Shown here piece after piece: positions 13,948-30,292 of a stretch of 32,000 nucleotides of DNA. The notes below the pieces were generated by a model that did no database searches, was not told where the DNA came from, and saw nothing but the letters and a program-made list of their open reading frames with translations. The position numbers and the translations under genes are program-made. The stretch spans positions 870,001 through 902,000 of the forward strand of contig OZ245922.1 in NCBI GenBank assembly GCA_965229705.1, read 5' to 3'. Source of the DNA: Candidatus Saccharimonadota bacterium. Lineage in GTDB: Bacteria; Patescibacteriota; Gracilibacteria; BD1-5; UBA6164. The first letter of the stretch is position 1. Every line of letters starts with the position of its first letter.

Positions 13948-14024
13948 GTCACTATAGCTCAGTTGGTTAGAGCGCAGGATTCATATCCCTGAGGTCGGTG
14001 GTTCAACTCCACCTAGTGACACCA
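13948..14024 (+). tRNA. Elongator tRNA with CAU anticodon (Met or lysidine-Ile2; not resolvable by eye), CCA encoded.
   Basis: Acceptor GTCACTA/TAGTGAC, D-arm GCTC-AGTTGGTTA-GAGC, anticodon loop TTCATAT (A31xC39 mismatch), T-arm GGTGG-TTCAACT-CCACC. Confidence 0.8.
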
Positions 14025-14541
14025 ATTTTATACAAAAAGCTAGTGGGAGTTGAGTGGAGGCACTGATTTCCAGTCTGCGCGAAGCGCAAAGATGGAAATT
14101 GATTGCGAGGAATACGAGCAATCACCGACGGTCTGAGAGCTACTGCTTGTGAAGCAAGTTGTAGCGAAAGACAACTCCACCTAGTGACACCAATTTTATA
14201 CAAAAAGCTAGTGGGAGTTGAGTGGAGGCACTGATTTCCAGTCTGCGCGAAGCGCAAAGATGGAAATTGATTGCGAGGAATACGAGCAATCACCGACGGT
14301 CTGAGAGCTACTGCTTGTGAAGCAAGTTGTAGCGAAAGACAACTCCACCTAGTGACACCAATTTTATACAAAAAGCTAGTGGGAGTTGAGTGGAGGCACT
14401 GATTTCCAGTCTGCGCGAAGCGCAAAGATGGAAATTGATTGCGAGGAATACGAGCAATCACCGACGGTCTGAGAGCTACTACTTGTGAAGCAAGTTGTAG
14501 CGAAAGACAACTCCATCTAGTGACACCAATTTATACAAAAA
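14004..14541 (+). repeat. Tandem array of 3 full 168-bp units plus a terminal partial copy. Each unit begins with the tRNA(CAU) T-loop-to-CCA segment plus 16 nt of trailer.
   Basis: CAACTCCACCTAGTGACACCAATTTTATACAAAAA recurs at 14004, 14172 and 14340. A slightly divergent copy at 14508 has CCATC instead of CCACC and one T fewer. The three units look identical by eye. Confidence 0.9.
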
Positions 14542-15754: not shown

Positions 15755-17113
15755 ATGTTCATCGACGAAGTTTCCATTCATGTAATTGCAGGGAAAGGCT
15801 GAAATGGTCTTGTATCTTGGCGTCGAGAAAAATATATTCCCAAATGAGGACCATGGTGATGAGATGGATGAAATGGTGGAAATGTGATACTTCAGGCAGA
15901 TGAAAATATCAATACTCTCAGTGAATACCGACACAAAAAAGTTGTGCGAGCACCAGACGGAGAGTGAGGAATGCCAAATCTTTGTCATGGAGCAAATGGA
16001 GAAGATAGAGTCTTGAAAATCCCCGTATGAACACTCGTTCGGGATGAACAAACCCGAGAAATCCTCAAAGATTTTCAGCAACATGGAGAACAATATTGTA
16101 TTGCTCGAGGCTGACGAGGATGATATGGAAATGCGCACTTCACAAGCTCAACCAGACAAGCCCCTGCCTTTGCGGAGCTTTGAGATATTCCTGAAGAAAA
16201 GCATATATATCTTGAACTCAAGCTCGTGGCTGACGTCGGAATTATTGGTATCCCGAGCGCTGGAAAATCAACACTTATTTCAAAACTTTCAAACGTAAAA
16301 CCCAAGATAGGAGACTACCCTTTTACAACTCTTACACCAAACCTTGGAGTACTGGAACATAAATGAAAATCTCTCGTGCTCGAAGACGTTCCTGGACTCA
16401 TTCCTGGTGCAAGTGAGGGAAAGGGGCTTTGAATAGAGTTTTTGAAGCATATTGAACGCACATGAGTTCTCTTACATCTCATAGATTTATACAGATTAGA
16501 TCAGGTTTTTACTGATTATAGTGATATTCGACATGAGCTTGAACAATTCTCTGAGGATCTTACATGAAAACAAGAAATATTTGTCTTTTCAAAAGCAGAT
16601 TTGTTGGACAGTGAAATGAAAGAGCACATCATCTCTGAATTTCGAAAAAAATACCCAGAAAGGGAGTACTTTGTTATTTCAGCTGCGACAGGAGAATGAA
16701 TTGAAGAACTCAAAGATTATCTCGCATGAAATATCTCTCCGATACAAAATGAAATCTCAGATGAGAAGAGAGAAGATATAAAAGTCTATGATCTTGAACA
16801 CCTCTCAGAAGATCCTAAGAAAGTAAAAATTACATATGAATGAGATATGGTTTTCCGTGCAAAGTGAGCAAGACTAGAACAAATTGTGCGTATGACAGAC
16901 TTTGAGAATAGAGAAGCTATTATGAGAGTATATGATGTGCTTGAGAAAATGTGAGTGATAAGGGAGATAGAGAAGAAGCTCGCAAGTATTCTCGAAGATC
17001 AAGATATAGATAATAGTTTCTTTTTTGAGGGTTCAGAGGAGAATAATATATTACCAAAAATTTGTATTTGAAACAGGGAAATTCCTCTTGAGAAGTTGAA
17101 GTATAATTTGTAG
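15755..17113 (+). CDS. obg: GTPase Obg/CgtA with a C-terminal Obg_CT-like domain.
   Basis: [15 protein letters not shown](G)[13 protein letters not shown](GG)P.(GG)DGGNGGNV; G-domain [26 protein letters not shown]. More than 25 in-frame TGA codons. 452 aa; TAG at 17111. Confidence 0.93.
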
Positions 17114-29237: not shown

Positions 29238-29312
29238 TCCTCCGTAGCTCAGCGGTAGAGTAGACGGCTGTTAACCGTTTGGTCACTGGTTCGAATCCAG
29301 TCGGGGGAGCCA
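29238..29312 (+). tRNA. tRNA-Asn (GUU), CCA encoded.
   Basis: Acceptor TCCTCCG/CGGGGGA, anticodon stem GACGG/CCGTT, loop CTGTTAA, T-arm ACTGG-TTCGAAT-CCAGT. Confidence 0.88.
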
Positions 29313-29516
29313 TTTAAAATAGCACGAGATTGGCATTAGAGTTTTTCATACTTTATGTTTCTGACTGGATGAGAAGTTTATGCCCCGCAGGGGTAAATCC
29401 AGTCGGGGGAGCCATTTAAAATAGCACGAGATTGGCATTAGAGTTTTTCATACTTTATGTTTCTGACTGGATGAGAAGTTTATGCCCCGCAGGGGTAAAT
29501 CCAGTCGGGGAGCCAT
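29294..29516 (+). repeat. Two tandem 102-bp units plus a terminal partial copy. Each re-creates the tRNA-Asn 3' end (AATCCAGTCGGGGGAGCCA).
   Basis: AATCC.. copies at 29294, 29396 and 29498. The terminal copy has GGGG instead of GGGGG and a different trailer. Confidence 0.9.
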
Positions 29517-29572
29517 AAAAAATTATCCTTAATTTCCCCTCTCCTTTGAGGAGAGCTTTGGAATAAGGTTTT

Positions 29573-29662
29573 GGAGAGATGGCTGAGTGGTCGAAGGCAA
29601 CGGTCTTGAAAACCGTCGAGGCTTCCGGGTCTCCCAGGGTTCGAATCCCTGTCTCTCCGCCA
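29573..29662 (+). tRNA. tRNA-Ser (UGA), long variable arm, CCA encoded.
   Basis: GGAGAGATGGCTGAGTGGTCGAAGGC.., anticodon stem ACGGT/ACCGT, loop CTTGAAA, T-arm CAGGG-TTCGAAT-CCCTG. Confidence 0.88.
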
Positions 29663-29790
29663 TTTTAATATCACAAAGAGTTATTTTATAGTTTTCGTGA
29701 TAGATTGTAGAGAAAATGTGGGATGAGAAGTTTATGCCCCGTAGGGGTAAATCCCTGTCTCTCCGCCATTTTAATATCACAAAGAGTTAT
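29644..29790 (+). repeat. One 106-bp unit duplicating the tRNA-Ser(UGA) 3' end plus 22 nt of trailer.
   Basis: AATCCCTGTCTCTCCGCCATTTTAATATCACAAAGAGTTAT occurs at 29644 and again at 29750. Confidence 0.9.
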
Positions 29791-30264: not shown

Positions 30265-30292
30265 TTGACAAAGAGGCCTCGACTTATAGAAT
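30265..30292 (+). promoter_or_regulatory. rRNA operon promoter.
   Basis: Consensus TTGACA (30265-70), 16-nt spacer, TAGAAT (30287-92), GC-rich discriminator GAGCCGGC. Lies about 140 nt upstream of the 16S 5' end. Confidence 0.65.

Follow-up and report, generated by a model that had tools for sequence, protein, structure and literature searches.

Small insertion units at bacterial tRNA genes end in a two-helix module that covaries with the host tRNA and may be a folded recombination site

The stretch of DNA analyzed here, 32,000 nucleotides (nt) long and hereafter called the window, comes from Candidatus Saccharimonadota bacterium (GTDB lineage Bacteria; Patescibacteriota; Gracilibacteria; BD1-5; UBA6164; GenBank assembly GCA_965229705.1, contig OZ245922.1, positions 870,001 to 902,000 of the forward strand). 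Toward one end it carries the gene order tRNA-Asn, tRNA-Ser(UGA), tRNA-Ser(GCU), tRNA-Met, and 16S rRNA, and the first two of these genes are followed by short repeat units that finish in a common module. The 34-nt sequence GGATGAGAAGTTTATGCCCCGYAGGGGTAAATCC occurs three times in the window, at 29367-29400, 29469-29502, and 29721-29754, and was absent from 100 shuffled sequences. A preliminary description by a model given only the sequence had reported a 33-nt module shared by an Asn unit and a Ser unit. The module is indeed shared, but it is 34 nt long and present in three copies, as the Asn unit is duplicated perfectly in tandem (102 nt; 29294-29497) and two modules therefore follow tRNA-Asn. 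The single-base difference noted in the hairpin loop is also real, with C in both Asn copies and T in the Ser copy.

All features lie on the forward strand. The intact host tRNA-Asn(GUU) (29238-29312; called by ARAGORN and scored at 66.3 bits by the Rfam tRNA model) ends in the 17 nt that are repeated downstream, T60 to A76 (29296-29312). It is followed by a variable spacer (29313-29357), by the strand TTTCTGACTGGA (29358-29369), which is complementary to tRNA positions 60 to 71 and forms the 5' side of an outer helix, P1, of 12 pairs including four G.U pairs, and by the first copy of a 28-nt core (29370-29397). The core consists of TGAGAAGTTTA, a hairpin TGCCCC-GCA-GGGGTA that forms an inner helix, P2, and AA, and it scores 65.4 bits with our covariance model R1. 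Directly after the core, the tRNA-Asn 3' end appears a second time, from T60 to CCA (29398-29414; direct repeat D2), and supplies the 3' strand of P1. The second Asn unit (29415-29499) is identical to the first and comprises a spacer, the P1 5' strand (29460-29471), and core copy 2 (29472-29499). A third copy of the tRNA-Asn end (29500-29515) has lost one G and, by its sequence, is a decaying displaced fragment. Weak promoter-like matches are present in the Asn units.

The intact tRNA-Ser(UGA) (29573-29662; ARAGORN and Rfam) is followed by one unit of 106 nt with a 41-nt direct repeat on its flanks. That unit contains a spacer (29663-29719), the P1 5' strand GGGA (29720-29723; helix length 4), core copy 3 with the loop GTA (29724-29751; 61.9 bits with R1), and the displaced tRNA-Ser 3' end with 22 nt of trailer (29752-29790; direct repeat D3, its 41 nt counted from A58). 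Every repeat of the window, including those at a tRNA-Met gene described below, starts within the T-loop, and each module copy is followed once more by the 3' end of its host tRNA. The pairing proposed for the Asn unit, between CTGACTGGAT and ATCCAGTCGG, is present, and the predicted fold lengthens it to 13 pairs by additional U.G pairs. Pairing in the Ser unit is limited to GGGA/TCCC plus an A-U pair, also as proposed.

The module is not confined to the window. A scan of one genome per GTDB species, with a pattern that required 19 of the 28 core bases to match, returned 41 loci against a rough estimate of 4 expected by chance, and 2 of the 41 look like chance matches. A metagenome scan with a second pattern, in which the hairpin was left free, returned at least 120 loci. 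After filtering, the two scans together gave at least 165 copies in about 148 loci, and counts out of 165 below are among the matches listed. The hosts are mostly members of the candidate phyla radiation (CPR)/Patescibacteria (Moran-, Uhr-, Pace-, Peri-, Peregrini-, Shapiro-, and Gracilibacteria), and a few metagenome-assembled genomes are, by their labels alone, Bdellovibrionales, Gammaproteobacteria, or Oscillospiraceae. No module matched Rfam 15, either at gathering scores or at E values up to 10, and a full-text literature search for the sequence and related concepts returned nothing relevant. Tiny tRNA-gene insertions that end in such a module seem to be an element type undescribed so far.

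The tie to tRNA genes that the preliminary description predicted holds for most copies. An intact tRNA gene on the same strand lies within 400 nt upstream of 115 of the 165, and its identity is Ser in 64 cases, Gln in 11, Pro in 9, Asn in 8, Tyr in 6, Val in 6, Lys in 4, Ala in 3, His in 2, Glu in 1, and Asp in 1. Eight further copies are at contig ends, and most of the other 42 have a 3' flank that resembles a tRNA 3' end. The layout of a copy is constant: a tRNA-complementary strand, (G)A, TGAGAAGTTTAT, R, CCC(C)-loop-(G)GGG, TAAA, and then the tRNA sequence T60 C61 C62 onward. The match between the downstream tRNA copy and the real tRNA begins at A58, the first 12 nt of the two tRNA-end copies being the same in 101 of 122 scored copies. 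In every copy the core adjoins the junction of the duplication exactly, in T-loop register, and the T-loop sequence GTTCGAA stands just 5' of the junction in 123 of 123 scorable host tRNAs.

Read from left to right, a unit consists of a copy of the tRNA 3' end from A58, by which the gene stays intact, a spacer, the complementary strand, and the 28-nt core, against which lies the displaced old end of the tRNA gene. The spacer ranges from 2 nt to more than 3 kb and is empty or holds a terminator-like hairpin or one or two accessory genes. Unit lengths cluster at 53 to 57, 66 to 74, and 94 to 109 nt. The smallest, at tRNA-Pro (L023, L029, and L035), are reduced to the tRNA end, 2 to 3 nt, 8 to 9 nt of complementary strand, and the core, and the same 53- to 57-nt architecture is found at tRNA-Pro and at tRNA-Ser in different lineages. 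Mini units sit between the tRNA and its terminator and are therefore co-transcribed with the tRNA. In long units, the tRNA end and the module are separated by a hairpin that resembles a terminator and is accompanied by a T-run, and no promoter was seen at a fixed distance from the module.

Several loci depart from this plan or add to it. At seven loci of Peri-/Peregrinibacteria type (L007, L030, L032, L039, L102, L125, and L144), a bipartite terminator-like hairpin with the recurrent layout A-tract, ACAG, CTCTGCC-AAA-GGCAGAG, ATGG, T-tract lies downstream of tRNAs, both in units and after the displaced end. Directly 3' of the module in L028 and L134, a G+C-rich hairpin of 20 nt splits the tRNA 3' strand after TCC(C), beyond which the acceptor strand resumes; the hairpin may itself be an additional small insertion. 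About 100 nt upstream of the module in L004, a copy of the tRNA-Ser end is preceded by TGAGATT where a T-loop would be expected, which looks like a module with its hairpin deleted.

Three other accounts of the units do not hold. A degenerate tandem tRNA with an insert in its T-loop would fit the unit length of about 100 nt, but the spacers resemble the 5' part of their own tRNA no more than shuffled sequences do, and neither ARAGORN nor the Rfam tRNA models called the units as tRNA. An array of clustered regularly interspaced short palindromic repeats (CRISPR) does not fit either, as all units have the same tRNA end as their intervening sequence and no cas-like family recurs nearby. Finally, a small peptide (ATG CCC CGN AGG GGT AAA and onward) is not encoded by the core, as 21 of 122 copies have ATA in place of its ATG and the reading frame changes in copies with a shorter P2.

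On the tRNA-sense strand, the module folds into P1, made of the flank and the duplicated tRNA strand, and P2, with an asymmetric and sequence-constrained loop between them (11 nt on one side versus 2 nt on the other). Covariation was evaluated over 122 distinct copies. The five pairs of P1 counted from the core boundary were paired in 100, 99, 97, 89, and 77% of copies, with G-C, A-U, U-A, and C-G all in use, whereas non-cognate combinations of flanks were paired in only 54% at pair 4 and 38% at pair 5. The duplex energy was -11.9 kcal/mol for cognate versus -8.1 kcal/mol for non-cognate combinations, a comparison that ignores relatedness. Paired cells made up 85.6%, versus 75.8% in shuffles and 31 to 56% in slid controls, and the covariation score was 0.301 versus 0.141 when shuffled; neither value was attained in any of 500 shuffles. 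RNAalifold, unaided, returned the same two helices and paired the U of UGAGA with the last A of UAAA. The pair statistics, the covariation score, and the RNAalifold fold thus all bear out the earlier proposal that the 5' flank tracks the 3' strand of the adjacent tRNA T-stem. That proposal had been built on a compensatory change at the fourth pair; the change from T/A to G/C is real, and while two window copies alone are no proof, the pattern holds across the 122.

The flank is complementary to tRNA positions 60 to 64, at most 60 to 71, and changes with the tRNA. At one tRNA-Pro gene, for example, the two strands are ATACAGGA/TCCTGTAT, versus ATACAAGA/TCTTGTAT at another, and where the tRNA has C60, GGGG/CCCC replaces GGGA/TCCC. 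P1 is 3 to 12 pairs long, most often 4 to 6 and usually within 4 to 9, and never passes position 71. The 12 pairs of the window Asn unit and of L027, which equal the length of an acceptor/T minihelix, are the maximum. P2 is 98.6% paired. Its loop-closing C-G pair is replaced by U-A in 12 copies and by A-U in 2, its base is G.U in 99 of the 122 and A-U in 21, and its tip varies between a loop of 3 to 5 nt and an extension of 13 nt. The extended tip, CCCA-GUAGC-NNA-GCGRA-UGGG with possible tandem G.A pairs, defines a module subtype found at L040, L059, L050, and L036. Structure on the antisense strand was rejected, as A.C mismatches in outer P1 are no commoner than in non-cognate controls.

Which of the two tRNA-end copies the flank follows is ambiguous overall (5 positions versus 7). 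Where the two copies differ strongly, the complementary strand matches the downstream copy. For example, the G found at position 69 in L148 misfits the tRNA's own 5' strand and yet is paired by a C of the flank. Because the flank follows the downstream copy where the copies diverge, a single block made up of the flank, the core, and the first portion of the downstream copy is passed on together (L148, L130, and L031). Block inheritance in turn suggests that strands may be exchanged 3' of tRNA position 69. In L031, an additional piece of a tRNA lies between tRNA-Ser(GGA) and the module; its T-loop is intact, and its acceptor strand differs. Three different tRNA-Ser ends at one locus suggest several past insertions.

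Occupied and empty sites can be compared among close relatives. Loci L016 and L108 come from relatives of the window organism (GyrB 83% identical) and have the same Asn-Ser-Ser-Met order. The window has two units at tRNA-Asn, one at tRNA-Ser(UGA), and none at tRNA-Ser(GCU); L016 has one, two, and none at the same genes; and L108 is empty at the first two and has one unit, with another core variant, at tRNA-Ser(GCU). The empty sites look seamless. Between orthologous units of the window and L016, the flank plus core is 94 to 95% identical (95% for the first Asn unit), whereas the spacers are only 58 to 64% identical (58% in the first Asn unit and 64% in the Ser unit). Arrays may mix unit subtypes, as in L040, L059, and L050. 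After a tRNA-Asn gene in L013 (3249-5370), two consecutive cassettes of about 1 kb have different cargo but common left ends, made of the tRNA end and a terminator hairpin, and common right ends, made of about 70 nt and the module, although the first module is degenerate. Cassettes of 0.9 to 3.3 kb carry accessory or defence-like genes, mostly co-oriented with the tRNA, and the cargo includes GmrSD with HNH, Mrr_cat, DUF4357, a DNA methylase, RusA, T5orf172, and DUF3592.

In our best reading, tRNA genes are occupied by a family of miniature insertion cassettes, and the module is their conserved right-hand end. We class the cassettes with tRNA-gene-targeting integrative elements, whose general layout (a regenerated gene, a displaced fragment, a junction on the T-loop side, and arrays) they have (PMC4383910), with a real chance that their mechanism is new. 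Recombination-site function, one of two roles raised in the preliminary description, is also the best explanation that we can offer. Specifically, and by analogy, we tentatively favor the idea that the module is a cis-acting folded single-strand recombination site like the attC site of integrons, a reading we would call well short of settled and somewhat short of probable. The terminus would fold as a single strand of DNA, and P1 would re-create the duplex of the target T-stem/acceptor arm (tRNA positions 60 to 71). A recombinase encoded elsewhere, of whatever type, would then exchange strands at the T-loop, and repeated insertion would build the arrays. Transcription of the module appears to be unnecessary, because terminator-like hairpins precede it in long units.

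Points in favor of this reading are the exact placement of the core at the junction, the occupied and empty sites among relatives, the mixed arrays, the accessory cargo, the covariation of P1 and P2, the block inheritance, the ceiling of 12 bp on P1, and spacers that diverge far more than flank plus core. A single-strand site is favored because the module combines an attC-like architecture with what would be mimicry of a duplex target, as in the CTX phage. The integron attC site folds as a single strand into two paired boxes with an unpaired spacer and a variable tip, and its enzyme acts in trans. In the same way, P1 and P2 covary, the loop between them is asymmetric, and the tip ranges from 3 to 13 nt. 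Integron cassettes are likewise small, mostly promoterless, co-oriented, and arrayed, and the following unit supplies the rest of their outer box. The differences are also clear. Integron core sequences R'' and R' are RYYYAAC and GTTRRRY, neither of which is found in the module and its flanks (NNGGA...TCCNN). No IntI, attI, or Pc was found, no integrase gene was found near the arrays, and the arrays start at a tRNA gene, the docking site being the tRNA T-loop. Moreover, the unpaired loop is constrained in sequence, and the core is far more conserved than attC. The attP(+) site of the CTX phage, for its part, folds as a single strand into an imitation of the duplex on which the host Xer recombinase acts. 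Elements of that kind need no recombinase of their own and form arrays, as here, but the target here is a tRNA gene rather than dif, and the module has no viral match.

Several observations weigh against a folded single-strand site. No phage-type integrase or recombinase was found in the bounded cassettes (L013, L088, L111, L119, and L159) or among open reading frames upstream of modules, and no protein family recurs beside modules. No excised or circular form was observed, and as to a vehicle of spread, the module was found neither in 2.9 million viral contigs nor, by BLAST, in phage and plasmid records. Units of 53 to 57 nt are, to our knowledge, smaller than anything that known recombinases have been shown to move. 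The search patterns are in part responsible for the apparent invariance of TGAGAAG, TTTAT, and TAAA, and positions left free in one or the other scan (TTTATR, the upstream GA, the downstream TC, and P2) are still conserved or covarying. The remaining points suit a role as RNA as well as, or better than, a role as DNA. The internal loop is highly constrained, the wobble pairs are wobbles only on the tRNA-sense strand, and in mini units no terminator separates the module from the tRNA. In addition, UGAGA stands directly 3' of P1 in all copies, at positions fixed by the search patterns, and fits the T-loop motif consensus UGNRA (YGNRA) (bioRxiv 10.1101/2022.12.26.521914).

Those points would be natural if the module were instead an RNA mimic of a tRNA T-arm within the read-through transcript of the tRNA. 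P1 would be a pseudo-T-stem, UGAGA a T-loop-type turn, and P2 a replacement for the bulged nucleotides 59 and 60. Such a mimic could shield the extra tRNA 3' strand from mispairing with the tRNA, serve as a handle for RNase P, RNase Z, or the CCA-adding enzyme on the trailer or cargo mRNA, or both. We think this unlikely, yet far from negligible. The UGAGA of a second module family and the CGAGA of an Arg-type module in L002, both described below, fit the consensus likewise, the base of P2 is predominantly G.U, the mini units are co-transcribed, and P1 attains minihelix length in two units. Like a T-arm or minihelix, the module has a 5-bp stem on the real T-stem 3' strand, then UGAGA, and then the acceptor 3' strand. 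Unlike one, it has a 17-nt hairpin insert in place of two bulged T-loop nucleotides and no D-arm, anticodon arm, or 5' acceptor strand, and tRNA finders are silent. Most P1 helices of 4 to 6 bp yield no acceptor helix, and the terminator-like hairpins upstream of the module in long units, with no fixed-distance promoter, argue against its transcription there. Moreover, a T-arm mimic leaves unexplained both the exact abutment of the core and the DNA junction and the spread of the units.

The module might also be an ordinary double-stranded attP arm of tyrosine-integrase islands, with the integrase gene at the far, tRNA-proximal end and mini units as deletion remnants or products of unequal crossing-over. 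Integrative islands with a regenerated tRNA gene, a displaced fragment, crossover sites in the T-loop, and tandem arrays are established (PMC4383910). Islander islands of that kind, like the units here, split a tRNA gene, restore its 3' part from the element, leave the displaced fragment at the far end, and form arrays; their crossover is at the T-loop or the T/acceptor junction, and the identity block of the units here starts at A58. Several modules have no tRNA in the available sequence, which points to larger elements, and unequal recombination can yield identical tandem units. The match fails in other respects. Units here can be gene-free at 53 to 110 nt, fully bounded cassettes of 0.9 to 3.3 kb have no integrase, and a covarying two-helix module lies at the junction, and because of these three features the cassettes sit poorly among tyrosine-integrase islands. 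A double-stranded binding site does not need covarying hairpins, random deletion would not produce the recurrent 53- to 57-nt design at tRNA-Pro and tRNA-Ser of different lineages, and the module remains conserved beside spacers in which change has reached saturation. We therefore regard an attP arm as quite unlikely.

Less likely again, and in our judgment improbable, is that the units are transposons with ends of the HUH/Y1 type (IS200/IS605-like or related to repetitive extragenic palindromic [REP]/RAYT elements), inserted 3' of TTCGAA without target duplication. The left end would be the unit's own copy of the tRNA 3' end, and P2 with TTTA/TAAA would supply the right-end hairpin, guide, and cleavage site. 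GTTCGAA just 5' of the junction in all hosts, seamless-looking empty sites, strand-specific structures, a tiny size compatible with single-strand circles, and the complementarity between TTTA before and TAAA after the hairpin all agree with such ends. IS200/IS605 elements, their miniature derivatives, and REP sequences have strand-specific hairpins, as do the units here, insert at a short motif without target duplication, and include tiny non-autonomous copies mobilized in trans. The units here would share that mode of insertion if their repeated tRNA end is borne by the element rather than being a duplication. In contrast, the units here carry the end of the target gene, are few per genome and all at tRNAs, show no conserved left-end hairpin, and have no linked Y1 transposase. 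A Y1 transposase was detected by tblastn at 2 of about 160 loci and lies beside only 1 of the 165 modules. That one belongs to an IS200-family insertion sequence (PF01797) in the spacer of a tRNA-Ser unit (L111, 3650-4440). We regard it as incidental rather than as a link to IS200/IS605, because L046 holds the same unit without the insertion sequence.

A small self-cleaving or self-ligating ribozyme of an RNA-mediated mobile element, in which target sequence would form part of a substrate helix, P1, as it does in the R2 ribozyme, is more improbable still. The compact two-helix architecture, constrained internal loop, and free helix tips would be in keeping with a ribozyme, and the core of the second module family, C-UGA-GA/GAAA, resembles a hammerhead core minus one nucleotide. 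No Rfam ribozyme matched at E values up to 10 (hammerhead, twister, pistol, hatchet, hepatitis delta virus-like, and hairpin), neither a third hammerhead helix nor a cleavage-site strand can be drawn, no reverse transcriptase is linked, and terminators lie upstream in long units. Lastly, the trans-acting guide RNA that the preliminary description suggested, which would pair with the T-stem 3' strand and direct its cleavage or modification, accounts for the complementarity to tRNA positions 60 to 71 but is very improbable, as the complementary strand always lies in cis beside a duplicate of its own target, with which it would self-pair and is inherited as one block, pairing is often only 4 to 5 bp, and no partner protein gene was found beside modules.

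If the module is a terminus that docks DNA, whether as the folded single-strand site favored above or otherwise, it could belong to a gene-capture system without an enzyme of its own. A 28-nt core and a few target-complementary bases would dock cassettes of 53 nt to several kb into the universal tRNA T-loop, through either a hijacked host recombinase that acts on a folded single strand or chemistry of the module RNA. We hold this wider proposal to be possible but doubtful. Its host-recombinase version, if true, would amount to an integron-like platform in CPR bacteria, with tRNA genes in the role of attI and often with defence genes as cargo. If the folded single-strand reading is right, the units would be among the smallest site-specific mobile units known to us, and the element would live in an essential gene free of cost by carrying the end of that gene and folding the leftover copy away. 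It would also point to an unrecognized way in which CPR/Patescibacteria, about whose mobile elements little is known, gain genes. The short, sequence-defined module, with an outer helix set by the target, could become a programmable insertion tool once the enzyme is found. For annotation, the module accounts for tandem repeats of partial tRNAs, a source of confusion in assemblies and for island finders.

A second module family occurs elsewhere in the window. tRNA-Met(CAU) (13948-14024; ARAGORN and Rfam) hosts three tandem units of 168 nt (14004-14532; direct repeat D1) with modules of the form GTC-TGAGAG-hairpin-CGAAA-GAC at 14131-14172, 14299-14340, and 14467-14508. Their logic is that of the main family: a tRNA end, a spacer, a terminal module, and the tRNA end again, in tandem and with a decaying last copy. 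The modules adjoin a copy of the tRNA-Met 3' end that starts at C56 and has a C>T change in the last copy. The preliminary description held that this unit ends analogously to the others, and the UGAGA, the hairpin, the A-rich 3' side, and a short closing helix do correspond, but the closing helix GUC/GAC does not involve the T-stem strand and model R1 did not detect the module. Another part of the unit contains a 13-nt strand that is almost the complement of the tRNA end. We conclude that the Met unit represents a different module family and not the same design. A hammerhead reading of its core was rejected, with no partner for stem I or III, no allowed cleavage-site nucleotide, and no Rfam match. 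The sole similar module among the collected loci is in L002, before a duplicated tRNA-Arg end, where CGAGA follows a short helix. Among 84 distinct tRNAs of these loci with a downstream copy of positions 61 to 72, 76 have the main module and 8 have something different, in a sample selected for the main module.

The window as a whole is chromosomal DNA with a G+C content of 36%. Between its two tRNA clusters lie housekeeping genes for LysRS, Era, Obg, RF1, CTP synthase, and GyrB, and this content (Obg, RF1, CTP synthase, and GyrB) rules out a 14-kb island there. Long reading frames appear only when TGA is read through, so UGA is a sense codon, and in-frame UGA codons fall at positions of the glycine-rich Obg N terminus (e.g., 15755-16000) that we take to be conserved glycines. 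Together, the need for read-through and the placement of the Obg codons indicate genetic code 25 (UGA as glycine), as in Gracilibacteria/Absconditabacteria. Upstream of the 16S rRNA gene, at 30265-30292, is a strong promoter-like site (TTGACA, 16 nt, TAGAAT; 11 of 12 matches). Because the gene has this site of its own, 16S rRNA expression may be independent of read-through from the insertion-bearing tRNA cluster.

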